The notes: generated by a model from the letters alone, not told the origin. Positions 38,103 through 54,676 are shown, numbered from the stretch's first letter. The stretch is 60,643 nt of DNA from an uncultured Candidatus Saccharibacteria bacterium (GCA_964357395.1 CAYHLC010000002.1:107033-167675); one strand, 5' to 3'. Translations and numbers: made by a program.

Positions 38103-38107
38103 CCAAC

Positions 38108-38131
38108 TCATATATGATCACCCATATATGA
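38108..38131. promoter_or_regulatory. double palindrome operator, site B
   Basis: TCATATATGA and CCATATATGA with centres 14 bp apart, 6 nt upstream of the T-box promoter -35. Confidence 0.6.
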
Positions 38132-38166
38132 TATGTTTTTCACTATAGCTCTTAGGGCACAGCGCT

Positions 38167-38604: not shown

Positions 38605-38618
38605 ACCCCAAAATCATA

Positions 38619-38642
38619 TCATATATGATCACTCATATATGA
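38619..38642. promoter_or_regulatory. double palindrome operator, site A
   Basis: Two perfect TCATATATGA palindromes 14 bp apart, overlapping the predicted promoter of the YerC-like gene. Confidence 0.6.
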
Positions 38643-38684
38643 GTCATTTTAAGCAGTGGGAGTTCTGCAGCTCGAGGGGTGGGG

Positions 38685-39767: not shown

Positions 39768-39769
39768 GA

Positions 39770-40009
39770 TTATGCGTCCTCTAGTTCATGCTCATCAGTC
39801 TTGGTATGTGTAGTGCTCGCCTTGCAGTTTGCACAGTAGATATACTTTTTATGCCCAAATTCCTTCCTGTTACTTGCATTGCGCCAAACCTCTTTTGTGT
39901 GATCACAACTTCGCCAAGAGCACGCGTACGTTTCGACATACCGTACCCATTCTGGATACCCGTTTCGACTTTTGGCGAACGTGATAACCCCTTCCCGAAA
40001 CTCGGACAT
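39770..40009 (-). CDS. small Cys4 zinc-ribbon-like protein (hypothetical)
   Basis: 79 aa from MSEFREG with CSWRSC and CANC pairs. Wedged between frr and rseP with 1-2 nt gaps. Confidence 0.55.
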   Translation of the reverse strand: MSEFREGVITFAKSRNGYPEWVRYVETYACSWRSCDHTKEVWRNASNRKEFGHKKYIYCANCKASTTHTKTDEHELEDA

Positions 40010-40010
40010 A

Positions 40011-40562
40011 CTAGCTCTCCAGCTCCTTTTCCTTACGAGCCGACAACTCCTCAAGACGCTTGTTGGACTCGTCTATTACCTTCTGCACCTCATCCTTGGC
40101 GCTTCGTGACGCATCCTCGCTCATGGTGCCGCCCTTTTCCTTGCTATCAACATCGTCCATCGCCTTCAGTCGCTCGCCCTTCAGGGAGACTCGCGCTTCC
40201 TCGAGCTTCCCGCGCACCAGCTTGATGAGCTGCTGCCTGCGCTCAGTCGTGAGTTCTGGAAACGTGACTCGTACGCCCACTGCGTCGGACCCTACACCAA
40301 CACCGAGATCCGCGATACTGATCGCTCGCTCTATCGGCTTCAACTGCCCCTTATCCCACGGAGAGATATAGAGAGAGCGTGCATCCTCGACACTAATCGT
40401 TGCGATCTGACTGATCTTCATGCGGGCGCCGTACACCTCGACCGATACTCCATCGAGGAGTGCGGGCGACGCTCGGCCGGTGCGGAGCCCTGTAAGTTCC
40501 TGTTGCAGCCAGGTATAGACACCGTCGGTGCCAGCTCGTAGTTTGTTTAGGTCGTATGCCAT
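40011..40562 (-). CDS. frr: ribosome recycling factor
   Basis: LRTGRASPALLDGVSVEVYG and VTFPELTTERRQQLIK strings. Confidence 0.95.
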   Translation of the reverse strand: MAYDLNKLRAGTDGVYTWLQQELTGLRTGRASPALLDGVSVEVYGARMKISQIATISVEDARSLYISPWDKGQLKPIERAISIADLGVGVGSDAVGVRVTFPELTTERRQQLIKLVRGKLEEARVSLKGERLKAMDDVDSKEKGGTMSEDASRSAKDEVQKVIDESNKRLEELSARKEKELES

Positions 40563-40574
40563 CTAGTTAGTATA

Positions 40575-40598
40575 TAGCCACTAGGGTATAGGGTCTAG
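40575..40598. repeat. TAGGGT-rich motif copy, overlapping the holB 3' end and the frr promoter
   Basis: TAGCCACTAGGGTATAGGGTCTAG, 23 of 24 identical to 16411..16434. Confidence 0.7.
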
Positions 40599-41258
40599 AG
40601 TGACAGCAAGATGGGAGAGGATCAACTTTGGTGAGGCTCCCGAGAGGCGGAGGTGCCGCTCGGCCTGGAGGAGCGTACGCAGCGCTGCGGGTGTGGTGTG
40701 CGCCATGTGCGCCTCGGCGATCAGGGAGCGGACGAATGCGCGCACCGGTCCCCTATCCTGGGTCTTCTGGCTAGCTGCCACCAACTTCTCCACCTGTGAT
40801 AGGCGCTCAGCATATCCTGCTTTCAGAAATCCAGCTCCGAGAGGCGACGCCTCGGGATCGGTCTTTGAAGCGTCGCCTCTGACTGCAATACATCGGGACT
40901 GCAGCGTCGAGAGTATGCCACCCAATGTTTCGGTGCAGAAAAAGAAGTGTGTGTTGCCTGGCGCCTCCTCCACCACCTTTAGCAAAGCGTTCTGCGCAGC
41001 GTCGTTCGCCCGATCAAACGTAATGATGAAGTACTTCCCCGCACCCACCGATTTCAAAAAGGCGTAGCTCGCGAGCGTACGCGCGTCGTCTACCCCCATT
41101 TCGGAATAGTCAAACTTCAGCAAATCAGGATTTCCTTTCGTCGCCACTCCCCGCTTTTCAAGCAGCGCGACCACCTGCCCTGAGCCTGCCCTAGGGTCGC
41201 CCACCACAATATATGCGTGATGCAGGTGCTCCGCTTTTGTTAGATCTGCGACGTGCAC
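40581..41258 (-). CDS. holB: short DNA polymerase III delta-prime-like clamp-loader subunit
   Basis: HAYIVVGD, NALLKVVEEAPGNTHFFF and STLQSRC strings (AAA+ sensor region). Confidence 0.8.
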   Translation of the reverse strand: MHVADLTKAEHLHHAYIVVGDPRAGSGQVVALLEKRGVATKGNPDLLKFDYSEMGVDDARTLASYAFLKSVGAGKYFIITFDRANDAAQNALLKVVEEAPGNTHFFFCTETLGGILSTLQSRCIAVRGDASKTDPEASPLGAGFLKAGYAERLSQVEKLVAASQKTQDRGPVRAFVRSLIAEAHMAHTTPAALRTLLQAERHLRLSGASPKLILSHLAVTLDPIP

Positions 41259-41288
41259 CCCTACATTGTACCGCGGTGGGACGAGCGG

Positions 41289-41537
41289 CTAGGAGCGGCT
41301 CATCACCTTGAGTATCGAGTCGCCGCCAGAGGTGCCTCGTGCCATGCCATCTGCCATCATGCCAAAACCTGCAAGCACGCTAAGAAAGGTAGCGAAAAAT
41401 GACTTGGCGTTGTCTATCTCTGGTGAGCCTCCGAGCACAAATCCACCGAGCAGAAAGACTAGCATGCCGGCGGTCATCTCCGCGGCGCCAACGCCGAGCC
41501 AGAGTGCTCGTCTACCAAAACTTTTTTCTGTTGTCAT
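41289..41537 (-). CDS. small membrane protein (hypothetical)
   Basis: 82 aa with two or three hydrophobic segments. Confidence 0.55.
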   Translation of the reverse strand: MTTEKSFGRRALWLGVGAAEMTAGMLVFLLGGFVLGGSPEIDNAKSFFATFLSVLAGFGMMADGMARGTSGGDSILKVMSRS

Positions 41538-41576
41538 GCCCTCACCGTACTCCTTTACTGCCTAGTGTCAACGCCG

Positions 41577-42593
41577 CTATCTCCTCTTGGTGGTGGCGGC
41601 GCGCTTGTAGGTGTCGAGATGGTTCAACGCTATGCCGGTGCCCTTCGCGACACAAAACGGTGCGTCGGTAGCAAGCGTCGCCTGCACACCAGTGCGACGA
41701 AAGACGAGCTCCGGCAGGTGCCGCAGTTGCGAGGTACCGCCCGTCATAATGATGCCGTGGTCGATGATGTCGGCGGCAAGCTCGGGCGGCGTCTCTTGCA
41801 GCACGGCGCGTATCGCCTTGATCATCTCGCGCAGCTCCTTCGCAATCGCGCGGACTATCTCGTTCGTACCTATCGTCACCGTGCGCGGTAGTCCGGAGAG
41901 GAGGTCGCGCCCTCGCACGGTCATGCTGAGCTCCTCCTCGACTGGCACGGCAGAGCCGACCTCGATCTTGATGTCCTCCGCTGTTTTATCTCCTATGGCG
42001 AGGTTGTAGGTCTTCTTGATGAAGTCGGCGATAGCCTGGTCTATCCTATTTCCAGCACACTTCACCGACGTCGAGGCAACAATGCCGCCGAGCGAGATCA
42101 CCGCGACATCGATAGTTCCACCACCAATGTCGGCAATCATGTGGCCACGCGGCTCATGAATCGGAATGCCGGCGCCAATAGCGGCCAAGATCGGCTCCTT
42201 AATAACGTACGCATTCCGGGCACCCGCCTTCAGTGACGCTTCGACGACCGCGCGGCGCTCGGTCGAGGTGACGCCAGCAGGAACAGAGACGATAACATCA
42301 GGTTTGAAGAAGTTCCAAGGCCCCAGCGCCTTCCGTATGTAGTAGCGGAGCATCGCTTCAGTAACGCGGTAGTCGGCAATGACACCGTCCTTCATCGGTC
42401 GATAGGCAATGATCGACTCGGGTGTGCGGCCTATCATCTCTTTGGCATCCGCACCTATGGCGAGGATCTTGCGGCCCGACTCTGAGACTGCAACGACCGA
42501 TGGTTCGTTGAGGACGATCCCCTTGCCAGGTACGTAGACAAGTGTGGTTGTTGTACCCAAATCTATACCCAACTTCGGAGACCAGAATGACAT
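41577..42593 (-). CDS. mreB: second MreB/Mbl-family actin homolog
   Basis: LGIDLGTTTTLVY, VIVSVPAGVTSTE, DIGGGTIDVA. Start set at MSFWSPK. The longer ORF crosses murA. Confidence 0.9.
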   Translation of the reverse strand: MSFWSPKLGIDLGTTTTLVYVPGKGIVLNEPSVVAVSESGRKILAIGADAKEMIGRTPESIIAYRPMKDGVIADYRVTEAMLRYYIRKALGPWNFFKPDVIVSVPAGVTSTERRAVVEASLKAGARNAYVIKEPILAAIGAGIPIHEPRGHMIADIGGGTIDVAVISLGGIVASTSVKCAGNRIDQAIADFIKKTYNLAIGDKTAEDIKIEVGSAVPVEEELSMTVRGRDLLSGLPRTVTIGTNEIVRAIAKELREMIKAIRAVLQETPPELAADIIDHGIIMTGGTSQLRHLPELVFRRTGVQATLATDAPFCVAKGTGIALNHLDTYKRAATTKRR

Positions 42594-42750
42594 ATAATTG
42601 CATTGTACTCGGTTTGGTATACTTAGGCCAAGATGGCCGGCCCAGAGGGATTGACCTTGGAGAACGCGCCCGCAATGTGTGCGAGTTGCAAAAAGCGTCC
42701 AGTAGAGTTTGAGGGCCTTTGTGGTCCTTGTTATAGATGGGAAGAACCCG

Positions 42751-44025
42751 CTACTCCTCCCGCCGAATCGCGACGCCAATAGCGCGGAGGCGCTCTTCAA
42801 TCTTTTCGTAGCCTCTGTCCACGAGGTGCGCGTTGCCAACGCGCGTGGTACCCTCGGCGACTATACCCGCGAGGATGAACGCGAGCCCGGCGCGGATGTC
42901 CGGCGTCTCGATGTCAGCTGCCCTCAGAGCGCGCTTCCCCACCACCCTTGCTCGGTGCGGACTGATACAGGTAATCTCGGCACCCATACGACAGAGCTCC
43001 TCGGTGTATGCAAGACGGCCGTCAAAGATGGACTCAATCATAATGCTCTCGCCGTGTGCTTGAGTCAGGAGCACCATCGTTGGTGGATGCGCATCTGTCG
43101 GAAATCCTGGATGCTCGTGCGTCCGCACCCTGACGGGCTGCAGCACCTCTGGCGCGCGCACCGTTATGTAGTCCTTGCCGACGTTGACGCGTACACCCAT
43201 GCGCATGATCACGTCCAAGACTGCGTCGAGGTGATGCGGGCGCACCTGCTCGACCGTGAGCTCCTCTGCAGCAAGCGCGCCGAGTGCGAGGAATGTCGCT
43301 GCCTCGATCCTATCCGGAATGACAGCAGCGGGTGGTGGTGAGTGGAGCGCTGTTGGAGTTATCACAATTGTTGCAGTGCCCACGCCTTCGATCTTCGCCC
43401 CCGCAGAAATGAGGAATTCAGCGAGCGCCACCACCTCGGGCTCCAAGGCGGCATTCCGGAGCGTTACCTTGCCACGGGCGAGTGTCGCTGCCATCATGAG
43501 CGCCTCTGTGCCAGTTACGGAAACGGTACTGAAGAAGTAGTCGCCGCCCTTGAGGCCCTGCGGGGCGGAGAAGGTGTATGAGTCATTAAACTCGGTGACG
43601 GTGGCACCGAGCGCCTGCAGCCCGGCAGCAAAGAGGTCGATCGGCCGCTCGCCGATAAGGTCGCCGCCCGGGTGCGGAAAGCTGACCGAACCCATACGCG
43701 CGAGGACTGGTCCCGTAAGAAGGATGGACGCGCGCAGGGACTTTGCGGTTGCATGGTCGAGTACGGTTGAGGAGAGCTCGCGCATGCCGAGCTCTAGAGT
43801 TCCGTTTGTGCGAACAACTGTTGCGCCGAGCCCTTCCAGAATCTTACCCATCGCGGCAACGTCGCTGATTGCCGGCACGTTGGTCAGTATGGTCTCCGCA
43901 CGGATCAGCACCGAGGCGGCCATCATTGGGAGCACAGCATTCTTAGCACCATTAACCTTGATCGAGCCCTTGAGTGTCTTCTTCCCGGCGAGGCCCTCGA
44001 TCACAAACGTCGACATTGGCTGCAT
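42751..44025 (-). CDS. murA: UDP-N-acetylglucosamine 1-carboxyvinyltransferase
   Basis: KVNGAKNAVLPMMAA and LRASILLTGPVLAR strings, with GGDLIGERPIDL where MurA proteins usually carry the Cys/Asp catalytic loop. Start at MQPMSTF. Confidence 0.93.
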   Translation of the reverse strand: MQPMSTFVIEGLAGKKTLKGSIKVNGAKNAVLPMMAASVLIRAETILTNVPAISDVAAMGKILEGLGATVVRTNGTLELGMRELSSTVLDHATAKSLRASILLTGPVLARMGSVSFPHPGGDLIGERPIDLFAAGLQALGATVTEFNDSYTFSAPQGLKGGDYFFSTVSVTGTEALMMAATLARGKVTLRNAALEPEVVALAEFLISAGAKIEGVGTATIVITPTALHSPPPAAVIPDRIEAATFLALGALAAEELTVEQVRPHHLDAVLDVIMRMGVRVNVGKDYITVRAPEVLQPVRVRTHEHPGFPTDAHPPTMVLLTQAHGESIMIESIFDGRLAYTEELCRMGAEITCISPHRARVVGKRALRAADIETPDIRAGLAFILAGIVAEGTTRVGNAHLVDRGYEKIEERLRAIGVAIRREE

Positions 44026-44046
44026 TGTACCCCGCCTCCCCAACCA

Positions 44047-44075
44047 TTGACATATGAGCATAACAAGTTTATACT
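44047..44075 (+). promoter_or_regulatory. sigma70-type promoter, leaderless configuration
   Basis: TTGACA-17-TATACT, then 7 nt to the ATG at 44083. Confidence 0.7.
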
Positions 44076-44082
44076 CCATCAC

Positions 44083-44277
44083 ATGAATATACGAGAATTC
44101 GTCCTTCGCCAAATGCCATTTCCGTTGATTATTGGTGCGATTGTTGGCGCCATTGGGCTTGACTCCATTCTCGCAGCGACCGGGGGTGATCGCTCATATG
44201 CACTCCTTATTGGCGGCATCATCGGCGGTCTTACCGGCAGTGTACTGTTTACGAACGCTAACGATCGACATCTCTAA
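44083..44277 (+). CDS. small 2-TM membrane protein (hypothetical)
   Basis: MNIREFVLRQMPFPLIIGAIVG. The ORF-track start at 44047 is the -35 hexamer itself. Confidence 0.55.
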   Translation: MNIREFVLRQMPFPLIIGAIVGAIGLDSILAATGGDRSYALLIGGIIGGLTGSVLFTNANDRHL

Positions 44278-44317
44278 GTTCGAGTGTGATTCCTGTACCA
44301 CTTGGTAGAATGGCCGT

Positions 44318-46234
44318 ATGTACGCGGTCAGGGTTATCCCTATCGTCCGAGGACCACTGAAGGGTGAGCTCACCTTCTTCAGTCGCGATTCGGTCCCCGA
44401 AGGGGCGATCGTCAGCGTGCCTTTGCGAAAAAAGATGGTGCCGGGCTTGGTGGTAAGCGCCCGCGACGTGCGAGAGGAAAAGCAGGTGCTGAAGGCGGCC
44501 GACTTTGCGCTCCGGAAGATCGGCCGCGCCGCGCCGCGTCGTATCCTCTCCCCTGCTTTTATGCGTGCAGTGTCACGGACTGCACGCTACTTCGTCGCGC
44601 CCGAGGGCGCGGTACTCTCGGCACTTACCTTCCAGCACGTGCTAACGAGTATTCGCATACCAGAGTGTAGCCCTCCGTCGCCAAAGGCTATGGAGGGCGC
44701 TGCGAGACCAGAGGTACTCCTCCTCCAAGCAGACACTGACGAGCGACTCAGCGAGTATCGGAACCTCGCTCGCGAAGCGTTTGCGAGGCAGAACTCTATT
44801 ATGATCATCGCCTCCTCGCTGATAGAGGTCGAGGCGCTTGCAGCAGCGCTCGGCAGAGGTATCGAAGACCAAGTAGTGACGCTCTCTGGTGACATGGGTG
44901 ATACGAAGGTACGCGCCGCATGGACCAAGGCAGTGTCGCCTGGCCTGCCTGCGCAGGCAGGCGTACCACTCCTTATTATAGGAACGCCACCAGCACTTTC
45001 GGCACCGGTACCGAACCTCGAGACTATTATTGTGGAGCGCGAGAGCGCACGTAGCTACAAAGGGCGCGTGCACCCGTACCTCGACCACCGGCTCGTCGCA
45101 GAGTGGGTAGCAGCAGAGAGCGGTGCGCGGTTCATCCTTGCCGACTTTCCTGTGCGCGTCGAGACGCGGGCGCGTATCGACGCCATCCGCGCAGAGTGGC
45201 TCACCCGCCCTGCCGCGCGGCCGCGCGGGCGTGCCATCGTCACACTATTTGATACTCGTGTAACTGAAGAAAAGAAGAAGGAGCGACGCGCTTTCCAGCC
45301 TATCTCTGTAGAGTCTGTTACCGCTATCGAGGAGGAGCTGGCGCGCGGTGGCCGTGTTGCAGTCTTCGCTGCCCGGCGTGGCATTGCCCCGCTCACCGTC
45401 TGTAACGACTGCGGCACACCGGTACAGGACAGGGCCGGTACCCCAATGACGCTCCACAAGACTCCAGAGGGACCCGCGTTCATATCGCACAAAACAGGAG
45501 CGCTGATGCCGGCCAACATCCGCTGCACCACCTGCACGAGCTGGAACTTGGTCTCCCTCGGCATCGGCGTCGATCGTGTACACGAGGAACTCAAGAAACG
45601 CTTGCCAAAGGCATCGCCCATCCTCTTTAGTGCCGACACTGCGCGCACGCACGCAGAGGCCAAACGCTTGCAGCGCGCGCTCTACGACAAACCGGGCACC
45701 ATCATCGTTGGTACCGAGCGCATGCTGCCCTACCTCACCGAGGGGGTCGAGCTCGCCGTCGTTGCGTCGATAGACAGCATGCTCTCCCTCTCTGCATGGC
45801 GCGCGCACGAGCACGCGCTCCAAACGCTGATGTACTTGCGCACTCGCGCAACGGAGCGACTCATTATTGAGAGCCGCAAGCCCGAGAGCGAGGTCTTGCG
45901 GGTTGCCGTATCTGGCGACATCCAAGAGTTTTATGAGCGCGAGGCAGCGGAGCGGAAGGAGTACGAGTACCCACCCTTTGCCACCTTCATCGGTCTCACG
46001 TGGGTCGGCACCGAGGTACAGAACAAGCTCGTCCGCGACTCTATAATCCCCGCACTAAAGAACTACGACGTCGTTGGCCCCTTGCCACCCGAGGTTGTAG
46101 AGCGCAACCGCATGCGCGAGCGCGCTGTTATTCGCATCCCTGTCGGGCAGTGGCCGAATGACGACCTCCTCGCCATTTTGGACACACTCCCCCCGTCGGT
46201 ATCGATTACTGTCGACCCCGATGATATTGTGTAG
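44318..46234 (+). CDS. priA: PriA-like primosomal protein N' lacking Walker A/B motifs
   Basis: PriA-like N-terminus, a Cys4 zinc region (CNDC...CTTC) and a GTERMLPY region. No GK[ST] or DExH anywhere in the 638 aa. Confidence 0.8.
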   Translation: MYAVRVIPIVRGPLKGELTFFSRDSVPEGAIVSVPLRKKMVPGLVVSARDVREEKQVLKAADFALRKIGRAAPRRILSPAFMRAVSRTARYFVAPEGAVLSALTFQHVLTSIRIPECSPPSPKAMEGAARPEVLLLQADTDERLSEYRNLAREAFARQNSIMIIASSLIEVEALAAALGRGIEDQVVTLSGDMGDTKVRAAWTKAVSPGLPAQAGVPLLIIGTPPALSAPVPNLETIIVERESARSYKGRVHPYLDHRLVAEWVAAESGARFILADFPVRVETRARIDAIRAEWLTRPAARPRGRAIVTLFDTRVTEEKKKERRAFQPISVESVTAIEEELARGGRVAVFAARRGIAPLTVCNDCGTPVQDRAGTPMTLHKTPEGPAFISHKTGALMPANIRCTTCTSWNLVSLGIGVDRVHEELKKRLPKASPILFSADTARTHAEAKRLQRALYDKPGTIIVGTERMLPYLTEGVELAVVASIDSMLSLSAWRAHEHALQTLMYLRTRATERLIIESRKPESEVLRVAVSGDIQEFYEREAAERKEYEYPPFATFIGLTWVGTEVQNKLVRDSIIPALKNYDVVGPLPPEVVERNRMRERAVIRIPVGQWPNDDLLAILDTLPPSVSITVDPDDIV

Positions 46235-46236
46235 CG

Positions 46237-46764
46237 GTGGATACTCATATCGTCCAAGACGGAGAAAACCCAGTTTTACGCTCGGTGGCCAAAGAGGTGC
46301 CTAAGGAGATGTTTGGCACGCCAGAGCTGACCACGATCCTCAAGCGCATGAGCGCCGCGCTTCGCGTTGCCAAAAACGGCGTTGCTATTGCTGCGCCACA
46401 AATCGGCGAGCCGTGGCGGATCTTCCTAGTCTCTGGCTTTGTGATAACAGGCAATCCACGAAACGATGACGACCCTGACAAAGTGTTTATCAACCCATCG
46501 ATGGTCCGCCAGTCCAAGGAGCGTGTCGCGTACGAGGGCGAGGGGTGCCTCTCGGTTGTTGGTATGTATGGCACAACACAGCGCTCCATGCGCGCTATGG
46601 TACGAGCCCAAGACGAAGCGGGCAAGAAGTTCATACGCGGTGGCTCCGACCTGCTCGCTGCCATCTTCCAGCACGAGCTCGACCACCTCGAGGGCACCCT
46701 CTTTGTCGACCATGCGACTGACCTTCATAAAGCAAAGGATGAGTCCGAGGTTGCAGAACTATGA
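46237..46764 (+). CDS. def: peptide deformylase
   Basis: GVAIAAPQIG, EGCLS and HELDH motifs. Confidence 0.95.
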   Translation: MDTHIVQDGENPVLRSVAKEVPKEMFGTPELTTILKRMSAALRVAKNGVAIAAPQIGEPWRIFLVSGFVITGNPRNDDDPDKVFINPSMVRQSKERVAYEGEGCLSVVGMYGTTQRSMRAMVRAQDEAGKKFIRGGSDLLAAIFQHELDHLEGTLFVDHATDLHKAKDESEVAEL

Positions 46765-47594
46765 AACTCGCATTCTTTGGCACACCGCGCTTTTCTTGCT
46801 TCGTCCTCGACGCGTTAGATGCTGCCGGCTACACGCCCGCACTCATCATCACCACCCCCGACCGCCCTGCCGGCCGCGGACTAGAGCTCCAGATGTCGCC
46901 GGTTAAGCAGTGGGCTATCACCCACAATGTTGATGTTATCCAGCCAACCTCCCTGAAAGGCGACGCCTTGGATGCAGATGTTAAGGCGTCGCCTTTACTA
47001 AACACCGAGTGGGATCTATTTGTAGTCGCCGGGTATGGAAAGATTTTGCCAAAAAGGATTGTGGACCTCCCAAAGTACGGGTCGCTGAACGTGCACCCAT
47101 CCCTACTACCCCGCTTCCGCGGCCCCTCGCCTATCGAGAGCCAGACACTCCAGGATGAAAAGGAGGTTGGTGTGTCTATATTGGTTATGGACGAAAAGAT
47201 GGACCACGGGCCCATACTTGCCCAGGCACGCATCACGCCCGAGGAGTGGCCACTCCGCACGCGCGAATTAGAGGACATGCTCTGGAGCGAGGGTGGCGAC
47301 CTCCTCGTCGAGTCGATACCTGCATACGCCGATGGTAGCCTAGTGCCCGAGCCACAAGATCATTCGGCCGCAACTACAACTAGCTTTATGAAGAAAGAGG
47401 ATGGCGAGCTGGACCTCGCTGCCGATCCGTACCAAAACTACCTCAAGTTCTGTGCCTATGACGAGTGGCCCGGGACCTTCTTCTTCGTCGATGGAAAGCG
47501 CCACAAGATCACTGAAGCGACGTACCTGGACGGTGTCTTCCGCCCTACAAAAGTCGTGCCCGAGGGCAAGAAGGAGCAGGATTGGCAGGGTTGA
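46761..47594 (+). CDS. fmt: methionyl-tRNA formyltransferase (short form)
   Basis: FFGTPRF, SLNVHPSLLPRFRGPSPI motif. ATGA overlap with def. Confidence 0.92.
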   Translation: MKLAFFGTPRFSCFVLDALDAAGYTPALIITTPDRPAGRGLELQMSPVKQWAITHNVDVIQPTSLKGDALDADVKASPLLNTEWDLFVVAGYGKILPKRIVDLPKYGSLNVHPSLLPRFRGPSPIESQTLQDEKEVGVSILVMDEKMDHGPILAQARITPEEWPLRTRELEDMLWSEGGDLLVESIPAYADGSLVPEPQDHSAATTTSFMKKEDGELDLAADPYQNYLKFCAYDEWPGTFFFVDGKRHKITEATYLDGVFRPTKVVPEGKKEQDWQG

Positions 47595-47616
47595 TAACCT
47601 CACGAGGACCAGCTAA

Positions 47617-47645
47617 TTGACATGTGTCAAATGTCATGCTAAATA
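47617..47645 (+). promoter_or_regulatory. sigma70-type promoter, leaderless configuration
   Basis: TTGACA-17-TAAATA, then 7 nt to the ATG at 47653. Confidence 0.65.
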
Positions 47646-47652
47646 TAGCTGA

Positions 47653-47988
47653 ATGGCTGAGAATGCGCCGCGGAAAGAGTCAGTGGGGGATTCCCTTTGG
47701 TGGGCGACTAAGTGTGCGGCTATCCCTGCCCTTTCTCTTATTTGGCTACCCTACTTTGTAGGTGCCGATAGGAAGTTGGATGGGTTGGTAACGCAGTTGA
47801 CCGGGCTGACCAGCGGCGAATCGGTGACAAGCGTAGTCGAGAAACCTACTGCGTGGATACGCAAGGATACTACATACAGCTACGACGGGATGGAAGAGTT
47901 TTACAGCTCATGGGAGGTGTTCATGACATCAATGGTTATCAGTATCGCCTTGGTCAGTCTCGCATTTAAACTGTTAAAGAAAAACTAG
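47653..47988 (+). CDS. 2-TM membrane protein, cassette gene 1 of 4
   Basis: 111 aa with an N-terminal helix, a roughly 50-aa loop and a C-terminal helix. The N-terminus MAENAPRKES resembles MTEKAPEKES of 49631..49978. Confidence 0.6.
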   Translation: MAENAPRKESVGDSLWWATKCAAIPALSLIWLPYFVGADRKLDGLVTQLTGLTSGESVTSVVEKPTAWIRKDTTYSYDGMEEFYSSWEVFMTSMVISIALVSLAFKLLKKN

Positions 47989-47989
47989 T

Positions 47990-48322
47990 ATGGACCCCGA
48001 AACAGCACAGCGAAGTGCAACCATGGAAATGCTACCGAAAGTGATGGTCGCTTATATTCTTGCGCAGATTTTTGTCATATCGCTACCCAGCTTGGTGGAG
48101 ATGTTTGGATTAGAGGAGCAGGCACACGGCATGGCGTTGCGACTTGGATATGATGGCTCACAAGTAACTTCGTATGAGAAGGTACCAACACTGATGGAGA
48201 GAGTAAACGATGTGAAGTCTGGAGGATACTCTTCGACTACCAAGCTTGCGTGGTTAGGCTTTCTTGGAGGTGGACTCCTCCTCTTTGTTGGGCGCAGAAT
48301 TATGGCAGGTAATCGCAACTAA
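47990..48322 (+). CDS. 2-TM membrane protein, cassette gene 2 of 4
   Basis: 110 aa with the same helix-loop-helix layout, 1-nt intergenic gap. Confidence 0.6.
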   Translation: MDPETAQRSATMEMLPKVMVAYILAQIFVISLPSLVEMFGLEEQAHGMALRLGYDGSQVTSYEKVPTLMERVNDVKSGGYSSTTKLAWLGFLGGGLLLFVGRRIMAGNRN

Positions 48323-48324
48323 AT

Positions 48325-48657
48325 ATGGCTGAGAAAATGGGCAATCATTGGAGTGCATACGCGGGGCTCGCTGCCGTTGTGGTTAGCGGCTTGGGCGTTA
48401 CGTATGGACCGGACCTGCTTGCGCAATACTTTGACATCCACGTTCCTGACCCGGTAGGCGCTGTAGTTGATGGGCTTGGACTCCAAGATATCGGCATCAC
48501 TACCTCTGATGGCATGGAGCCAGAGACCTGGGAAGCCAAGAAGACAGTTACGACATACACACCATCAGCGCTCTTCTGGTATCGTATTCAAACTGGCATT
48601 TTTGTTGGTGTTGCTATCCTTCTTTTCCGCTCGTACTTTAAAAGCCTTAAAAGATAA
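48325..48657 (+). CDS. 2-TM membrane protein, cassette gene 3 of 4
   Basis: 110 aa with the same layout, 2-nt gap. Confidence 0.6.
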   Translation: MAEKMGNHWSAYAGLAAVVVSGLGVTYGPDLLAQYFDIHVPDPVGAVVDGLGLQDIGITTSDGMEPETWEAKKTVTTYTPSALFWYRIQTGIFVGVAILLFRSYFKSLKR

Positions 48658-48659
48658 GT

Positions 48660-49052
48660 ATGGGGCAAGAACAACACGACGACAGTGGTCCGTACGCAAT
48701 GCTTGGAATACACTTTGGATCAGCTATTGCTGCAGGCATACTTACCTGGAGCGTACTCGAGCCGCTCTCACATACGCTTGGATTTGATACCTACATAGAC
48801 GACTACGCACGTAGTATGGGGTTTGAGCCAATGACGGAGGAAAAGATTTCTGACCCAGTGGTTACTAGCGAGCGACGAGTTGGGCCGGAGGAAAGATTTA
48901 CTTGGATGAGCGCGCGGGACCAGGCTGGGTACCTTATCTTCCTCGCAACGATGGCGGCATTCCTGATCGCTGGCAGTCTGCTGCGCAAGAAGACCCCTGG
49001 CCCGTACCCAGGACCCACTGTTGCTGACAAGCGAGATCCAGGCCTGAATTAA
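48660..49052 (+). CDS. 2-TM membrane protein, cassette gene 4 of 4
   Basis: 130 aa with the same layout plus a Pro-rich tail, 2-nt gap. Confidence 0.6.
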   Translation: MGQEQHDDSGPYAMLGIHFGSAIAAGILTWSVLEPLSHTLGFDTYIDDYARSMGFEPMTEEKISDPVVTSERRVGPEERFTWMSARDQAGYLIFLATMAAFLIAGSLLRKKTPGPYPGPTVADKRDPGLN

Positions 49053-49060
49053 CCCCCCCT

Positions 49061-49105
49061 CGTGTCATCCCTGAGGGCAAGAAGGAGCAGGGCTGGCTCG
49101 GTTGA
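49061..49105 (+). pseudogene. relic of the 3' end of fmt
   Basis: cgtgtcatccctgagggcaagaaggagcagggctggctcggttga reads VIPEGKKEQGWLG*. The true fmt end (47552..47594) reads VVPEGKKEQDWQG*. 19 consecutive identical nt. Confidence 0.8.
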
Positions 49106-49153
49106 CAATGCCAGTTTTATGGTATAAAATATACAAATAGAAATTACGAAGTT

Positions 49154-49399
49154 TTGTGTATGTTAAATAGAGCTGAAATTGGTCAGAGAGCACTTGGTAC
49201 CCTAATGGTACTTGGCGGGGCACTATGGACAGGCCTCTGGGGCGTTGCTGGTGAGTATGTCGCCTTTGAGCGTTGGGAGCAAATGGATCTAAAGAATTGG
49301 ACTCTGCTCACCGCAGCTGTTCTCTACAAAAGCCGCTGGGGCATTGGTGCAGCAATTGCTGGTATGCATCTAATGAACGCGGGTAAGAATAAAATTTAA
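49154..49399 (+). CDS. small 2-TM membrane protein (hypothetical)
   Basis: 81 aa. Promoter TTGACA-17-TAAAAT starts inside the fmt relic stop region (49102). Confidence 0.55.
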   Translation: MCMLNRAEIGQRALGTLMVLGGALWTGLWGVAGEYVAFERWEQMDLKNWTLLTAAVLYKSRWGIGAAIAGMHLMNAGKNKI

Positions 49400-49401
49400 A
49401 C

Positions 49402-49623
49402 ATGAACTTCAACGATTTAAACGAGGGACAGAGACGAGCATTGATTCCTGTTATAGGGGGTGGTGCATTTTTGGCGCTTGACCTTGTTACGCTAGCTACA
49501 GGCAAGAATATCCTAGGGTTCTCATGGCTCCTAAATGACGAAATGCCGAACGTAGCCGACATAGCGCTTGCTGGCATTGTTATGGCAGTTGGCATATACC
49601 TCTTTTTTAAACGCTCAAACTAA
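49402..49623 (+). CDS. small 2-TM membrane protein (hypothetical)
   Basis: 73 aa with two helices, 2-nt gap. Confidence 0.55.
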   Translation: MNFNDLNEGQRRALIPVIGGGAFLALDLVTLATGKNILGFSWLLNDEMPNVADIALAGIVMAVGIYLFFKRSN

Positions 49624-49630
49624 ATAACTT

Positions 49631-49978
49631 ATGACTGAAAAAGCACCGGAGAAGGAGTCGATCGCGAGTTCAGTTTTCTGGGCTATCCCCCGCTTCCTTT
49701 GGCACATGGCCGAGGTACAGGCCGATGCCAGGATACGTGGCGGCGTAATCGGAGCTACGGTGGGGCTCACCACCATGTTCCCTTTCTGGCTTGCACTCAA
49801 AGCAGCTGGTGTAGAGTTTACCCCTGAGAATACGCTGTTTGATCAGATCAATAGTGACACAGCACTAACGCTCATGTATGACGCAAGCTTCGTGCTCAGC
49901 CTTTTACTTGGATGTGTCGTCGTCAACTGGATGTTTGACAAGGACGCCGAAACTAAGCGAGTAACTAGTGCAGCGTAG
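49631..49978 (+). CDS. small multi-TM membrane protein, N-terminal paralog of 47653..47988
   Basis: 115 aa, MTEKAPEKESIASSVFWA. Confidence 0.6.
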   Translation: MTEKAPEKESIASSVFWAIPRFLWHMAEVQADARIRGGVIGATVGLTTMFPFWLALKAAGVEFTPENTLFDQINSDTALTLMYDASFVLSLLLGCVVVNWMFDKDAETKRVTSAA

Positions 49979-50006
49979 GAATAAGTGATCAAAAAATAGT
50001 CTGTGT

Positions 50007-50035
50007 AACAGCCCGAGGTCCAACCTCGGGCTGTT
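50007..50035 (+). terminator. REP-like hairpin terminator, twin of 29980..30008
   Basis: AACAGCCCGAGG-TCCAA-CCTCGGGCTGTT followed by TTGC. Confidence 0.75.
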
Positions 50036-50038
50036 TTG

Positions 50039-50413
50039 CTAGCTCCCTCTCCAATACCTGAACAAATCTTTGACTTTGGTGGCACCGCGGCGGAGTAAGT
50101 CGCGGTGTTTTGTTACATGCTTCTGCACTTCCCTGCGCGCTTCGTCCCCTGCCTGATCGATTGCGGCATGCAAGGTCGGGCAGGTCGCCTCGGCGCGCAC
50201 AAAGCCGCCTGCGAATGAGAGGTTGATTTCCGCTCGGAACTCCTCGCCCGTGCGCGAGCCACCAGTCGTGCAGAGCTCCACATCGGCGTGAGCTGTGGGA
50301 TCACTGCTCAGCAGTTTAAATATCTTGCCGAGCTTCTGCTCTACATACTCGGTTACCTCATCAGTTAACATCACTGCTCCAGAAGCTTTGACTAGAAGTT
50401 GGGTGTGCGCCAT
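50039..50413 (-). CDS. hpf: ribosome hibernation promoting factor / RaiA family
   Basis: TDEVTEYVEQKLGKI and LHAAIDQAGDEARREVQKH strings of the S30AE fold. Confidence 0.85.
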   Translation of the reverse strand: MAHTQLLVKASGAVMLTDEVTEYVEQKLGKIFKLLSSDPTAHADVELCTTGGSRTGEEFRAEINLSFAGGFVRAEATCPTLHAAIDQAGDEARREVQKHVTKHRDLLRRGATKVKDLFRYWRGS

Positions 50414-50434
50414 ATATCTATTCTACCAGTATCT

Positions 50435-51598
50435 CTACCGCGCTTCGTGGATTAAGGATACGCGATACACAGCTCCGGCACGATCGTCAGAGATATACAA
50501 GACCCCTCCTGGCTCTGCGAGGAGCCCCACGGGCCGCCCTATGACGTCCCCATCATCAGTGATGAACCCGGTCATAAAGTCCTGCTCCTCCCCTGTAGGC
50601 ATACCGCGCTCGTCCACCACTACCCGCACCACTTTGTACCCTGAGGGCAGGGAGCGGTTCCAGGAGCCGTGGTAGGCCACCAGGGCGTCCAACCAGTATT
50701 CCTCAGGCCAGCCCTCCTCAGGGGCAAAGGCGATGCCGAGGGGGGCCGAGTGCGCCGGGATATCGTAGACTGACGGCTGCTCAAACGGCTCGGAGCACGG
50801 CGCGCGGATGTAGGTGTTCTGGTCAAACTCGGTGTCGTGCACATTCTTGCCATAGCAGGTAGGCCAGCCATAGTTGCCACCCTTCTTCAGAATGTTGATC
50901 TCGTCTGGCGGCGTGTCGTCCCCCAGGAGGTCGCGGCCCATGTCGGTGCCCCACAACTCGCCAGTCACCAGCTCGTACGCCATAAACACGGTATTGCGGA
51001 GCCCGCGAGCGTACACCGAGGCCTCCTTGCTCTTGAGGTCTATCTCCATAATGGTGGCGCGGCGCGTGTCTGCCTCATTGCAGACATTGCAGGACGAGCC
51101 GACCGAAACGAGGAGCGATGTGTTGTCGTGACTCGGAATCAGCGTTCGTGTGCTGTGCCCCCCATCCGTCGGGAGCACTGCAATGGTCTCGAGGTACGTG
51201 GCGCTCTTGGTGTCTGCGTTGTACGCATAGGACTTGACCGCACCCTCCTCGGCCACGTACAGTATGTCGCCGATGAGCGCGAGTCCGTGTGGCTCACTGA
51301 GGCCATCCAAGATCACCTTCTTATCCGGCAGCGCTACTATCTGACCCTCAGATGTTTGGGACACCAGTAGTGCGCCCTTCGGATCGCGAATGAGGACACG
51401 CGCACCCGGCACTCCGGAGGCGTACACCTCAACACGGAACCCTTCAGGGACGGTAAAGGCGGATGGCTCCGAAACCTCGACCCTCTTTGATAACTCGATG
51501 AGCGGGATGATCTGCGAGGCGATGCCCCAGAGGTTGAAGTAGAGGACCGCTCCAATAAGTATGGCCGCTGCAAGGGCGGCCCAAAGTAGAGTTCGCAT
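50435..51598 (-). CDS. PQQ-dependent sugar (sorbosone/glucose) dehydrogenase-like beta-propeller, membrane anchored
   Basis: KKGGNYGWPTCYG signature, N-terminal TM helix. TATAAT lies 6 nt upstream of the ATG. Confidence 0.8.
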   Translation of the reverse strand: MRTLLWAALAAAILIGAVLYFNLWGIASQIIPLIELSKRVEVSEPSAFTVPEGFRVEVYASGVPGARVLIRDPKGALLVSQTSEGQIVALPDKKVILDGLSEPHGLALIGDILYVAEEGAVKSYAYNADTKSATYLETIAVLPTDGGHSTRTLIPSHDNTSLLVSVGSSCNVCNEADTRRATIMEIDLKSKEASVYARGLRNTVFMAYELVTGELWGTDMGRDLLGDDTPPDEINILKKGGNYGWPTCYGKNVHDTEFDQNTYIRAPCSEPFEQPSVYDIPAHSAPLGIAFAPEEGWPEEYWLDALVAYHGSWNRSLPSGYKVVRVVVDERGMPTGEEQDFMTGFITDDGDVIGRPVGLLAEPGGVLYISDDRAGAVYRVSLIHEAR

Positions 51599-51606
51599 AC
51601 ATACAT

Positions 51607-51675
51607 TATACCCCGTGAGATATTTTGTTATTTGACATATATAGTAATAGTTTTCGCATTATCTCATGGGGTATA
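51607..51675. repeat. 69-bp palindromic promoter cassette, copy 2
   Basis: TATACCCCGTGAGATA - 37 nt containing TTGACA - TATCTCATGGGGTATA. Arms abut the -10 boxes of both divergent genes. Confidence 0.75.
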
Positions 51676-51686
51676 CTGTCTGTACT

Positions 51687-52613
51687 ATGAAGAAGGGATA
51701 TTTGAGTGTAGGTGATGGGCACACTATCTACTTCGAGGACTGGGGCAATCCAAAGGCAGTGCCTATCTTCGCCCTCCATGGCGGACCCGGCACAGGCTTC
51801 AGCAAGCGGCACCAGAAGCTCTTCGATCCGAAGAAGCACCGAGTGATATTCCACGATCAGCGGGGGTGTGGCCGCTCGACCCCGTTTGCATCGACCAAAC
51901 ACAATACGACACAGGACCTCATAGCAGATATCGAAAAGCTACGCGAGCACCTGGGTATCAAGAAGATGTACGTCGCCGGCGGCTCGTGGGGTTCGACCCT
52001 CGCCCTCTTCTACGCGATCGCGCATCCTAGCAGGGTTAAGAAACTGCTGATCTGGAGCGTGTGGCTCGCACGAAAGTTTGATACCTATTTTATGGCCGAG
52101 GGGTACCCGCGGCATTTCTTCCCTGCAGAGTGGGAGCGCTTTATCTCTGTGGTCCCAAAGCAACATCGGAAGAATGGTGAGAGCATTACGCGCTACTATG
52201 CTGCCAAAATCAGAAGCTCGAGCAAACAAGTTGCCAGCAGCTACGCGGACCTATGGGCACAGTGGGAGGGTACCCTCATCTCGATCAACTACAACCCAAA
52301 AACATTGGCCGCGGACACGCGTGCGCTTTCGGGCGAGAGTATTCCCGTCTCAATATTGGAAACACATTACTTCCTCAACCACTGCTTTGTTCCTGAAAAC
52401 TACATTCTGGCAAACATCAATAAAATCAAGCATATCCCCTGCTTCGTAGCACATGGCTACTTCGATATGTGCACACCCGCAGTCGGTGCCTACGATCTTG
52501 CCAAGGCGTATGGCAAAAAGTTAAAGCTTATGTGGACCAACTCGAGCCACACCACCGCCGACCCCGAAATGTTCAAAACCCTATCCGCCGCTACCCGCGG
52601 CGAACTTATCTAA
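51687..52613 (+). CDS. pip: prolyl aminopeptidase (proline iminopeptidase, alpha/beta hydrolase)
   Basis: HGGPG oxyanion motif, GGSWGSTLAL nucleophile elbow. The ORF-track ATG at 51666 lies inside the palindrome arm. Confidence 0.9.
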   Translation: MKKGYLSVGDGHTIYFEDWGNPKAVPIFALHGGPGTGFSKRHQKLFDPKKHRVIFHDQRGCGRSTPFASTKHNTTQDLIADIEKLREHLGIKKMYVAGGSWGSTLALFYAIAHPSRVKKLLIWSVWLARKFDTYFMAEGYPRHFFPAEWERFISVVPKQHRKNGESITRYYAAKIRSSSKQVASSYADLWAQWEGTLISINYNPKTLAADTRALSGESIPVSILETHYFLNHCFVPENYILANINKIKHIPCFVAHGYFDMCTPAVGAYDLAKAYGKKLKLMWTNSSHTTADPEMFKTLSAATRGELI

Positions 52614-52614
52614 G

Positions 52615-53022
52615 ATGGAACCGAGCCAGAAGATCATACTGAAGGATTCAGGAGTGGCTAATGCGGGGCGCGGCGTATTTGCGACAATCACAATTGCGGA
52701 GGGCGAGCTGATCGAGTCCTGCCCCGTTATAGAGCTCACGAGCCGTTGGGATCGCCGCCTTTTAAAGCTGACCGAGCTTCGCAACTACTACTTCCTCTGG
52801 GGAGAGCCTCAGACGCAAGTTGCCGTAGCGCTCGGATACGGATCTCTGTACAACCACTCCTACTCTCCAAACGCCAAGTACAAAAAGTTAGACGAGGAGA
52901 AGTGTATTAATTTTTATGCAATTCGCGATATCGCGCCTGGCGACGAAATATTGGTTAACTATAATGGAACACCGACAGACAAGACTCCACTTTGGATCAA
53001 AGAGATACCGCTCGCTGAGTGA
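52615..53022 (+). CDS. SET domain protein (putative lysine methyltransferase)
   Basis: GRGVFAT, NHSYSPNAKY and GDEILVNY motifs characteristic of SET domains. Confidence 0.85.
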   Translation: MEPSQKIILKDSGVANAGRGVFATITIAEGELIESCPVIELTSRWDRRLLKLTELRNYYFLWGEPQTQVAVALGYGSLYNHSYSPNAKYKKLDEEKCINFYAIRDIAPGDEILVNYNGTPTDKTPLWIKEIPLAE

Positions 53023-53728
53023 GATCCGATCTCACTCAAGGTATAGATGCTCAAGCGACGGATCTCTGATTGCCCGCAAATAACTCTTGAGGCTCGTGGT
53101 GTGAGTGTGCCGCTCAGCAAAGATATCGGACCCAGTAAGAATCTCCGAGAACTCAGGCTCACCGCTATAGTTACGGTAACTACTCCAGCGGTATGCGTCG
53201 AGATAGTCGAGGGCAGCCTTAGGACTTGCCAGAGACTGAGTCCGCCAACCAGACCCGCCGCGCATAAGGTCTAATGGATTGCAATGAATGTAATGCAAGA
53301 TGTAGTTAAAGTGCGCCTCCTTCTCGATCAGCACCTTCTTCGTCTTCCCTTGAAACAGAACTCCACTTCGCTGGTGTCGCTTATTAAAGTACATCGTGTA
53401 CCCAATGTTAAGCTTTTGCAGAAACTTGCTCACTCCATTTTCAACATGCGATGACAACAAGAGATGGTAATGATTTCCCATCAGGCACCATGCATGGACA
53501 TCCACCAAACGGTTCCGATCATCTGAGTGAGATCCGATCTCACTCAGATCCCTTGAAAGGTTAACTACCGAGTCTACGTCGTTGAAGGCATACAGGCCTA
53601 GCACAAAGCGCTGCCGGTCATAATTGTCCATCACTATAGCTCGCTTGTCAGTCCCTCTATTTAGCGCGTGGTACAGCTCCATTCCCAGCATAGTATCACC
53701 CAGTATGAGTGAGATCCGATCTCACTCA
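53016..53728 (-). mobile_element. second RAYT/IS200-like gene with three copies of a 23-nt perfect palindrome
   Basis: TGAGTGAGATCCGATCTCACTCA at 53016..53038, 53524..53546 (within the extended palindrome 53521..53549) and 53706..53728. Confidence 0.7.
53032..53691 (-). CDS. HUH-Y1 transposase, RAYT-like, paralog of 20246..20911
   Basis: MGNHYHLLL (HUH) and LHYIHCNP (Tyr context). GYTMYFNK is shared with the other copy. Confidence 0.8.
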   Translation of the reverse strand: MLGMELYHALNRGTDKRAIVMDNYDRQRFVLGLYAFNDVDSVVNLSRDLSEIGSHSDDRNRLVDVHAWCLMGNHYHLLLSSHVENGVSKFLQKLNIGYTMYFNKRHQRSGVLFQGKTKKVLIEKEAHFNYILHYIHCNPLDLMRGGSGWRTQSLASPKAALDYLDAYRWSSYRNYSGEPEFSEILTGSDIFAERHTHTTSLKSYLRAIRDPSLEHLYLE

Positions 53729-53734
53729 GGAAAT

Positions 53735-54676
53735 CTAGCGGCCGCGGCCGTACTGCTCCTTAAGGAGGGCGACGTGCTCCTCGTACGTGACGGAGCAGAA
53801 GAACTCGCTCGTCTTTGAGTGGAAATAGAACATGCAGTCCGTCTTCCTTGGATTTAGTGCCGCGATGATTGCCGCCACGGAGGGGTTTGATATCGGCCCT
53901 GGGGGGAGGCCGCTATGCATATAGGTGTTGTAGTCCGACTTGATGTACTTGTCCCTCGAGCGTGGCACCGGCCACCAGCCGTTACTCCCTGTACCGCGCG
54001 CGTAGGAAAGCGTGGCGTCGAGCTGTAGACGCATGCCGGCGAATATCCGATTCCAGATAATTCCTGAGATAATCCGCATCTCCTCCGCATTCCCTGCCTC
54101 GCGCTCCAGCATCGACGCAATGGTGAGCGCATCCGCTACCGGCACCACCTCGCGCGTACTGGTCGCGTAGCGCTCCAAAACCCGATTGTTAAACTCGGCA
54201 TTGATGAGCGCCTCCACATCCGTAGGCGTCATGCCCGGCGAAACCAGGTAGGTAGAGGGGAACAGCATACCTTCGTCAATAGCAAGCGTCGCCTTCCTAT
54301 CCCACTTCAGCGCCGTACCAAACGCGCGTGCCACCTGCTCCTTACGCGAACCGGGTTGGATAGTAACCGTTGTGGGGAGGCCAACGAGCGCCACCGATTG
54401 GTACCACGGCTGCTCGGCAACAAATGCCGCAACACGCTGCAAAAACCGAAATGAGAGCTGCTCCACTGCTGGCGGTTCCTCACGTATAACACGTGCTATC
54501 GGATCGACCGAGAGTGTAAAAGGTTCTGGCTCGAACGGCGTTATTATTTCGGCGTGCAGGAAGGAAACAAGAGTGGGCAGGAACAGCACGGCGATCATTC
54601 CTCCTGCGGCAACTCCTGTTAGGGTCATAACAATTCCGCGTGCGCCCTTCATCACCACACATAGTAGCAGAGGCAA
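53735..54676 (-). CDS. mltG: endolytic murein transglycosylase MltG (YceG-like)
   Basis: N-terminal TM helix, ASMLEREAG and YNTYMHSGLPPGPISNP motifs. Confidence 0.9.
   Translation of the reverse strand: MPLLLCVVMKGARGIVMTLTGVAAGGMIAVLFLPTLVSFLHAEIITPFEPEPFTLSVDPIARVIREEPPAVEQLSFRFLQRVAAFVAEQPWYQSVALVGLPTTVTIQPGSRKEQVARAFGTALKWDRKATLAIDEGMLFPSTYLVSPGMTPTDVEALINAEFNNRVLERYATSTREVVPVADALTIASMLEREAGNAEEMRIISGIIWNRIFAGMRLQLDATLSYARGTGSNGWWPVPRSRDKYIKSDYNTYMHSGLPPGPISNPSVAAIIAALNPRKTDCMFYFHSKTSEFFCSVTYEEHVALLKEQYGRGR

Follow-up and report, generated by a model that had tools for sequence, protein, structure and literature searches.

This study concerns the region downstream of fmt, the methionyl-tRNA formyltransferase gene, in a 60,643-nt stretch of DNA (hereafter the window) from an uncultured bacterium deposited as Candidatus Saccharibacteria (GCA_964357395.1 CAYHLC010000002.1:107033-167675); all coordinates are positions in this window. 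Here murA, priA, def and fmt are followed by seven small genes, which we name g1 to g7, and then by a strong terminator and a convergent hpf. Between g4 and g5 lies a second, partial copy of the fmt 3' end, which we call the relic to distinguish it from the resident tail that completes the fmt reading frame. The closest fmt sequences all come from metagenome bins of Patescibacteria/Paceibacteria, the source being groundwater from well H41 of the Hainich aquifer, and by sequence affinity the organism is of a Paceibacteria lineage of the Candidate Phyla Radiation (CPR). We propose, giving it about an even chance, that recombination anchored in fmt brought in a foreign tail together with g1-g4, and pushed the native tail, its promoter and g5-g7 downstream. 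The features on which the argument draws are these (ORF, open reading frame):

46761-47510, plus strand: fmt codons 1-250, the apparently vertically inherited body of the formyltransferase (Pfam Formyl_trans_N, E = 1e-29; 82% amino acid identity to L080)
47511-47594, plus strand: resident fmt tail, codons 251-277 and stop, apparently a foreign replacement (breakpoint, identity to relatives); holds repeat copy 1 (47553-47597)
47591-47596, plus strand: TTGATA over the resident fmt stop, apparent degenerate remnant of a conserved -35 box (TTGACA at this position in relatives L066, L067, L068 and L083 and in the relic)
47617-47645, plus strand: P1, putative promoter for g1-g4 (TTGACA at 47617-47622, 17-nt spacer, TAAATA at 47640-47645, 7 nt to the g1 ATG)
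47632-47662, plus strand: second homology patch, copy A, a degenerate g5 start ATGCTAAATATAGCTGAA that is now the -10 region and start context of g1 (local alignment)
47653-47988, plus strand: g1, 111 aa, two-transmembrane hairpin ORFan (hydropathy, ORF calls)
47990-48322, plus strand: g2, 110 aa, two-transmembrane hairpin ORFan (hydropathy, ORF calls)
48325-48657, plus strand: g3, 110 aa, two-transmembrane hairpin ORFan, paralogue of g1 (hydropathy, ORF calls, paralogy)
48660-49052, plus strand: g4, 130 aa, two-transmembrane hairpin ORFan (hydropathy, ORF calls)
49061-49105, plus strand: relic, apparently of the native fmt 3' end, RVIPEGKKEQGWLG and stop (repeat, tails of relatives)
49102-49130, plus strand: P2, predicted promoter for g5-g7 (ggTTGACA, 17-nt spacer, TAAAAT; the -35 box contains the TGA stop of the relic)
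49157-49189, plus strand: second homology patch, copy B, the g5 start ATGTTAAATAGAGCTGAA (local alignment)
49160-49399, plus strand: g5, 79 aa, small membrane ORFan starting MLN (hydropathy, ORF calls)
49402-49623, plus strand: g6, 73 aa, two-transmembrane ORFan (hydropathy, ORF calls)
49631-49978, plus strand: g7, 115 aa, membrane ORFan, N-terminal paralogue of g1, adjoining hpf (hydropathy, paralogy)
50009-50037, plus strand: intrinsic terminator at the end of the array (folding energy -27.8 kcal/mol, z = -6.85)
50039-50413, minus strand: hpf, for the ribosome hibernation factor; convergent and conserved, it bounds the fmt-hpf slot on the right (Pfam Ribosomal_S30AE, E = 5e-15)

A first-pass annotation, made from the sequence alone, had described a degenerate recurrence of the fmt end with 19 consecutive identical nucleotides, and this stands. 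The direct repeat is 45 nt long (47553-47597 versus 49064-49108), with 82% identity (37/45) and a spacing of 1,511 nt. Among 1,500 random 45-mers of the window, the second-best match averaged 25.3 and reached 36 at most, compared with the 37 observed here. The window has exactly two occurrences of the 19-mer GAGGGCAAGAAGGAGCAGG, and 100 dinucleotide shuffles yielded no match to it, even at ≤3 mismatches; by these two nulls we reject chance similarity of the fmt-end copies. Read in frame, the downstream copy gives (T)PPRVIPEGKKEQGWLG and the resident fmt end RPTKVVPEGKKEQDWQG, each followed by a stop. The relic lacks a start codon, and its frame differs from that of g4. It aligns with its own fmt over 49064-49105 and with the fmt tails of relatives over 49044-49105, the match back to ~49044 being weak. 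A further extension to ~49020 was rejected (VADKRD versus VDGKRH), as it matches at 11/18 nt, needs a 22-nt gap and is not significant. We also reject an assembly artefact, since the independent contigs L076 (47398-49726) and L077 (47379-53988) each span both copies at 100% identity to the window; contigs L078 and L079 cover the first junction, and the insert is present in all five assemblies of this strain.

The repetition does not end with fmt. A second homology patch, 38-52 nt past the stop codons, pairs 47632-47662 with 49157-49189 at a local alignment score of 28 (shuffles 15.0 +/- 2.1, with 0/1,000 reaching 28). The patch corresponds to the start of g5 (MLNRAE), and the first gene after fmt in relative L034 likewise begins MLN. 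With homology both in the tail and at the g5 start, the repeated unit is thus the head of an array: fmt tail, promoter and start of the first gene.

The two copies differ in how the fmt stop codon relates to a promoter. In the four relatives named in the feature list the stop lies inside TTGACA, and in L084 and L034 it directly abuts TTGAC(A/T); a -10-like box follows these sites after a 16-17-nt spacer. The relic has this same overlap, and P2, with 11/12 consensus matches, is the best promoter-like site in a 5-kb scan. At the resident fmt end the hexamer is TTGATA, and a distinct, weaker promoter follows 22 nt later. This is P1, the leaderless promoter of the first-pass annotation: both hexamers and the 17-nt spacing can be read from the sequence as described, but the -10 box is weak and a consensus scan did not flag the site. 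Because its stop/-35 arrangement equals that of the relatives, the downstream copy appears ancestral in layout, and together with P2 and g5 it would preserve the ancestral arrangement of the clade. As separate observations, the P1 -35 box sits inside a perfect 6-2-6 palindrome TTGACATGTGTCAA (47617-47630), with a further TGTCA after it; the palindrome looks like a candidate operator, and the array has no regulator gene. In fmt of the relatives, synonymous codon conservation peaks over the last ~20 codons (0.55 versus ~0.42), which suggests a dual coding and regulatory constraint on the fmt end.

Comparison with relatives bears on which tail is original. Against L080, the nearest relative, nucleotide identity is 92% over the 75 nt that precede 47511 and 52% beyond; by codons it is 0.82-0.92 over codons 215-254 and ~0.50 over the last ~30, and third-position identity falls from 0.65-0.75 before the breakpoint to 0.20-0.25 after it. 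A maximum chi-square scan sets the breakpoint at 47511, codon 251 (0.78 to the left, 0.525 to the right; chi-square 25.6, 0/2,000 permutations). In the matrix of identities before and after this point only the window tail is an outlier, its 78 nt being 0.51-0.58 identical to six relatives and 0.68 to L084, while L080's tail and all other pairs of relatives show 0.63-0.87; the discontinuity therefore belongs to the lineage of the window. The relic matches the tails of relatives at 34.7/48 nt on average, the resident tail at 31.2/48, and the relatives match one another at 37.8/48. The two window copies have 33/48 in common, no more than the relic has with relatives of 61-82% identity (33-36/48). 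At the amino acid level the best matches of the relic are P0003, P0008 and P0001 (13/17), P0001 and P0003 being the two nearest full-length fmt relatives, and those of the resident tail, with 118 fmt relatives ranked, are P0042 (19/28) and P0030 (18/28), which belong to a more distant subclade. These comparisons point to a resident tail that is either foreign or extraordinarily accelerated, and to the relic as the native tail. A four-point grouping of the two window tails was set aside as not robust, resting solely on two AAG codons in the core.

The genes between the two copies are as compact as first described: ORF calls agree on 111, 110, 110 and 130 aa for g1-g4, with gaps of 1, 2 and 2 nt. 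Hydropathy likewise bears out their common layout, each having two hydrophobic segments, a 49-56-aa acidic loop between them and a basic C-terminal tail. The protein of g4 additionally has an unusually long, proline-rich C-terminal tail of 22 aa that runs into the relic junction, which is the look that might be expected of an ORF extended at a junction. The N-termini of g1 and g7 are 40% identical over 55 aa (z = 8.7, 400 shuffles), and the claim that the last of the three small genes after the relic is an N-terminal paralogue of the first is thereby upheld. Paralogy also links g1 with g3 (z = 6.9), and g1 looks chimeric by sequence, its N-terminus resembling g7 and its loop and second helix g3. 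A start motif, TAAATA..GCTGA, is common to g1, g3 and g5.

All seven genes are ORFans: an exhaustive HMMER search with g1-g7 of 1.84 billion cluster representatives returned the seven self matches and nothing else, and Pfam, NCBIfam, PHROGs and PADLOC gave sub-threshold noise, with no toxin, immunity or defence family. An AlphaFold2 model of g1, computed with no alignment, has two long helices in a helical hairpin, at low confidence (predicted local distance difference test score, pLDDT, 57). Because of the basic C-terminal tails and acidic loops, read by the positive-inside rule, we speculate that g1-g7 are probably N-in/C-in helical hairpins with fast-evolving acidic loops exposed on the cell surface; a role in surface variation is a guess consistent with rapid gene turnover. 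The G+C content (GC) drops from ~0.58-0.62 to ~0.49 across the entire seven-gene array, not merely across g1-g4. At third codon positions (GC3), g1-g7 have 0.42-0.61 (g1-g4 0.49-0.61) and the housekeeping genes on either side 0.63-0.75; the resident fmt tail stands at 0.71 and the relic at 0.76.

The history that we put forward, recombinational displacement anchored in fmt, would run as follows. Incoming DNA from a related array would have brought codons 251-277 of fmt as a foreign tail, along with a degenerate array head and g1-g4; since g1 is paralogous to both g3 and g7, the donor would have been a homologous array and not an unrelated mobile element. At the left end, homologous recombination in the fmt body would have placed a crossover at ~47510/47511. 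At the right end, illegitimate joining at ~49044-49060 would have fallen inside the recipient's own fmt tail. The outcome would be an intact fmt with a foreign tail, the loss of about 10 native codons, and the movement of the native tail (49061-49105), P2 and g5-g7 by 1.5 kb downstream, where the relic would still supply the -35 box for g5-g7. Such an exchange would need no integrase and could proceed by homology-facilitated illegitimate recombination (HFIR). Directly observed are the repeat, the conserved stop/-35 layout, the breakpoint, the outlying resident tail, the paralogy and the ORFan nature of the seven proteins; donor, direction, recombination pathway and promoter activity are inferred. 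The overlap of stop and -35 box offers a plausible reason why the relic persists, because insertion at the head of the array then needs the overlapping segment in duplicate.

The same topology would result from the mirror image of this event, in which the relic, P2 and g5-g7 were imported, with homology anchored in hpf and an illegitimate joint after g4, leaving the resident tail and g1-g4 as native. The gene hpf is a conserved flank and could have served as the anchor, but the breakpoint lies inside fmt. The relic does resemble the tails of other lineages; however, its best matches include P0001 and P0003, and the outlier relative to the nearest relatives is the resident tail, not the relic. 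The stop/-35 overlap, too, is lost at the resident end and kept in the relic. We regard this direction of transfer as very unlikely.

The topology of gene, insert and displaced 3' end, which is real, had led the first-pass annotation to site-specific integration of a mobile cassette whose DNA restores its target gene. The part that assigns the fmt end to incoming DNA agrees with our results, given a resident tail that is an outlier from codon 251 and a clade-typical relic with its stop/-35 overlap; the integration itself does not hold up well, and we rate it decidedly unlikely. It would require a cassette with a mimic of the fmt tail as its attP attachment site, and a tyrosine or serine recombinase that acted in trans or has since been lost. 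The exact 19-nt core, which in that history would be the crossover core, does flank the insert in direct repeat, with the target gene restored. Yet EGKKEQ, the peptide encoded by the core, does not vary in the clade, and the core differs from relatives solely by A-to-G changes at third codon positions, so that conservation of the residues in a GC-richer genome, with its G-ending codons, would suffice to explain the identity. Both copies, moreover, have fmt-like flanks on both sides of the core, the homology extends beyond fmt, the divergence breakpoint lies 51 nt upstream of the core, and the relic is without roughly 10 codons to be expected in a clean attR site. The GC of the insert is below that of the surrounding genome, but it is low in g5-g7 as well, outside the insert, and the cargo belongs to the resident family, being paralogous to genes beyond the insert.

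No integrase was found in the insert or within -10/+6 kb of it, as the first-pass annotation had stated, and gene calls and Pfam matches examined over 36761-53988 revealed no recombinase in or near the insert. No viral contig with a mimic of the fmt tail was found in a pattern scan of IMG/VR, whose single match, L082, falls in another reading frame of a large phage ORF and was dismissed as coincidental. Scanning the region for Rfam families and tRNAs gave nothing relevant. The one transposase-like gene nearby, a 219-aa ORF on the minus strand at 53032-53691, is assigned to the IS200-like Y1 transposases (PF01797, E = 1.4e-6, which passes the gathering score). It is situated ~4 kb from the insert and ~3 kb past hpf, with a SET-domain gene on one side and yceG on the other. 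IS200-like Y1 transposases are not known to produce such repeats.

A history with no import at all is unlikely, though the locus offers it several points of support: the head of the array would have been duplicated in tandem in situ, by illegitimate or unequal exchange between sister chromosomes, and the copies would then have diverged, the upstream tail being kept for coding only and the downstream tail for its promoter only, with g1-g4 derived from duplicated array genes. The tail and g5-start patches are indeed repeated in the same order, but the promoter core between them is unalignable and differs by 13 nt in length between the copies. Paralogy within the array (g1 with g3, g1 with g7) and the start motif of g1, g3 and g5 are suggestive of local origin; against this, the paralogues are not collinear, g1 pairing with g7 and g3 and not with g5. 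We found no two head-to-tail collinear units, only the head (tail and g5 start) aligning, and a unit of 1,511 nt does not fit into the 950 nt after the relic; hpf is also single. Composition suits duplication, as both tails are GC-rich with AAG AAG codons as in the host genome and the lowered GC3 is common to all seven genes. The raised synonymous conservation of the relatives' tails fits it as well, since a dual constraint could be split between two copies. However, it is the functional copy that is the more diverged of the two, and the divergence sets in sharply at codon 251, some 10 codons before the repeat becomes detectable.

Returning to displacement from a related array, the slot between fmt and hpf in relatives gives it a setting. 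Lineages with 61-82% fmt identity keep the synteny def-fmt-[small membrane genes]-hpf, with hpf on the minus strand, and a convergent hpf follows fmt in L001, L002, L003, L034, L066, L068, L083 and L084. The slot has a single small gene in L066, L068, L083 and L084, three such genes in L034, three or more in L067 and L062, and seven in the window. More distant relatives (~45% identity) have ordinary enzyme genes there. Small profiles delimit the families L066a/L084a/L034c, L068a/L067c/L083a, L034a/L062b/L062c and window g1/g3/g7; they found no significant links between families, and homology of the small proteins across lineages was rejected on this ground. A PEGK regular-expression search over 64 loci, the L034 and L062 arrays included, found no further relics in the arrays of relatives, no nucleotide profile of greater sensitivity having been applied. 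The slot thus appears from these sequences to be a variable one, occupied by lineage-specific small membrane genes behind a promoter that overlaps or abuts the fmt stop.

A contig from the same aquifer sample, L033, aligns to window positions 46174-47486 at 2x coverage. Over 47074-47452 (379 nt) it matches the window exactly, and blastn gives 10 mismatches and 2 gaps for the whole alignment. After 47452 it continues with a ~65%-identical, still fmt-coding 3' region, CAYDGWPGTYLFKNDKRIKI, and it ends at codon 250, before the insert site. It is possibly a second recombinant fmt allele, or else an assembly chimera. If it is real, recombination in the fmt 3' region would be ongoing in the population. 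L081 is the best protein-level match to the L033 tail, but at ~80% identity we did not accept it as the source. In the R3 assembly, L065 ends at 47389 and L077 starts at 47379, inside fmt and with an 11-nt overlap; this break, ~65-75 nt upstream of the point at which L033 diverges, could reflect low coverage (4x) or a graph branch from strain variation. Variability of the slot, with its unrelated families, and L033, as a possible second allele, fit displacement.

Several points weigh against displacement. No donor was found: the best sampled tail has 68% nucleotide identity (19/28 aa), and g1-g4 are without homologue. The GC3 of the resident tail, over just 28 codons, is host-like, unlike that of g1-g4. 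Comparison of the region downstream of fmt, a check proposed in the first-pass annotation, shows that slot content varies, but no cassette-free strain was recovered among the assemblies, and presence/absence polymorphism was thus not seen. The 2x coverage of L033 makes a chimeric contig possible. A single relic is present, which does not amount to repeated displacement. Finally, further, unspecified rearrangements are needed to account for the g5-start copy ahead of g1 and for a g1 that itself looks chimeric. The remaining probability, after the histories considered here, goes to unresolved multi-step ones.

Some further observations concern the contigs and the neighborhood of the slot. The low-coverage contig L078 has T>G at 47592, which changes the fmt stop TGA to GGA; the next codon is TAA, so that Fmt would gain one Gly. 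The position is close to the contig end, and the change may be an error. L078 and L079 each have one non-synonymous change in g2 (G53V and D2E, respectively). Within fmt, a perfect 14-nt inverted repeat at 46956-46996 (codons ~66-79) consists of AAAGGCGACGCCTT, 13 nt and AAGGCGTCGCCTTT; L080 is 4 codons shorter and poorly conserved in this segment. Related 13-mers give 11 matches in the window versus 2 expected, a count inflated by the palindromic pattern. Between murA and priA, a further small (76 aa), glycine-rich membrane ORF lies on the plus strand at 44047-44277, and L066 has two small unannotated genes in that position.

The fmt-hpf slot is a conserved address of fast-turnover ORFan membrane proteins, and offers a convenient locus at which gene gain, gene birth and surface variation of uncultured Patescibacteria can be studied through metagenomes. 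We consider it highly unlikely that the slot is a dedicated platform for gene capture and gene birth, with recurrent fmt-tail/promoter recombination that would add new small genes at the array head, in the manner of an integron that has no integrase, and with ORFan proteins that would be surface-variation determinants under diversifying selection (e.g. in host attachment or phage evasion by episymbionts). The likeness to integrons is that of a promoter-proximal array of small, packed, promoterless genes, in which new genes seem to enter at the head; the differences are that there is no intI and no attI here, that the 1-2-nt gaps leave no room for attC, and that inverted repeats between genes are absent.

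Integrases are known to insert DNA into the 3' ends of genes and restore the target, as do e14 or phage 21 at icd and islands at tRNA and tmRNA genes. The order of gene, insert and displaced pseudo-3'-end is the same in our locus, and here, too, the resident end would come from the incoming DNA. Our locus differs in having no integrase and no phage or island genes, in homology that goes beyond an attachment core, in genes outside the insert that are related to those within it, and in a breakpoint that is off the core.

A closer likeness is to loci of polymorphic toxins. C-terminal displacement and orphan arrays were reportedly treated by Jackson et al. in 2009, as cited by Kirchberger et al. 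2017. Sequential displacement of C-termini, with orphan arrays, is described for Rhs, contact-dependent inhibition (CDI) and type VI secretion system (T6SS) loci, with HFIR as a suggested route (Kirchberger et al. 2017, PMC5361080). In those systems, as proposed here, a conserved upstream gene serves as the homology anchor, a new 3' end comes in with small genes, and the old 3' end is shifted on with its downstream genes and kept, building an array with no integrase. Two features of such loci are found in the window: an fmt body that passes into an apparently replaced 3' end, where similarity falls off sharply, and a start-less old 3' end that is followed by its own downstream genes (relic, P2, g5-g7). 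The differences are that the anchor is the housekeeping gene fmt and not a polymorphic toxin gene, that the displaced tip is a conserved 17-residue tail and not a variable toxin domain, that the genes encode ORFan two-helix membrane proteins with no evidence of immunity function, so that the defining toxin/immunity pair is absent, and that there is one relic, with a promoter overlapping the old stop codon. By this analogy the locus would work like a member of the displacement family without being one, having the features of mechanism in common.

As for the route, HFIR has been reported during natural transformation in Acinetobacter, S. pneumoniae and P. stutzeri (PMC3240628; references in PMC5361080). 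The one-sided homologous anchor, the abrupt switch (47511) and the non-homologous distal joint (~49044-49060) of the window resemble its products, as do the net insertion and the small deletion in the recipient; the difference is that here the pathway is suggested by the footprint alone. Displacement recombination, known from polymorphic-toxin loci, thus seems to have acted here on an essential housekeeping gene of a reduced-genome CPR bacterium. A gene end that doubles as a promoter would limit how such an array can grow, since new genes could enter at the head only with the overlap segment duplicated. The type of rearrangement is already known; the variant proposed here is its action on a housekeeping gene that ends within a promoter.

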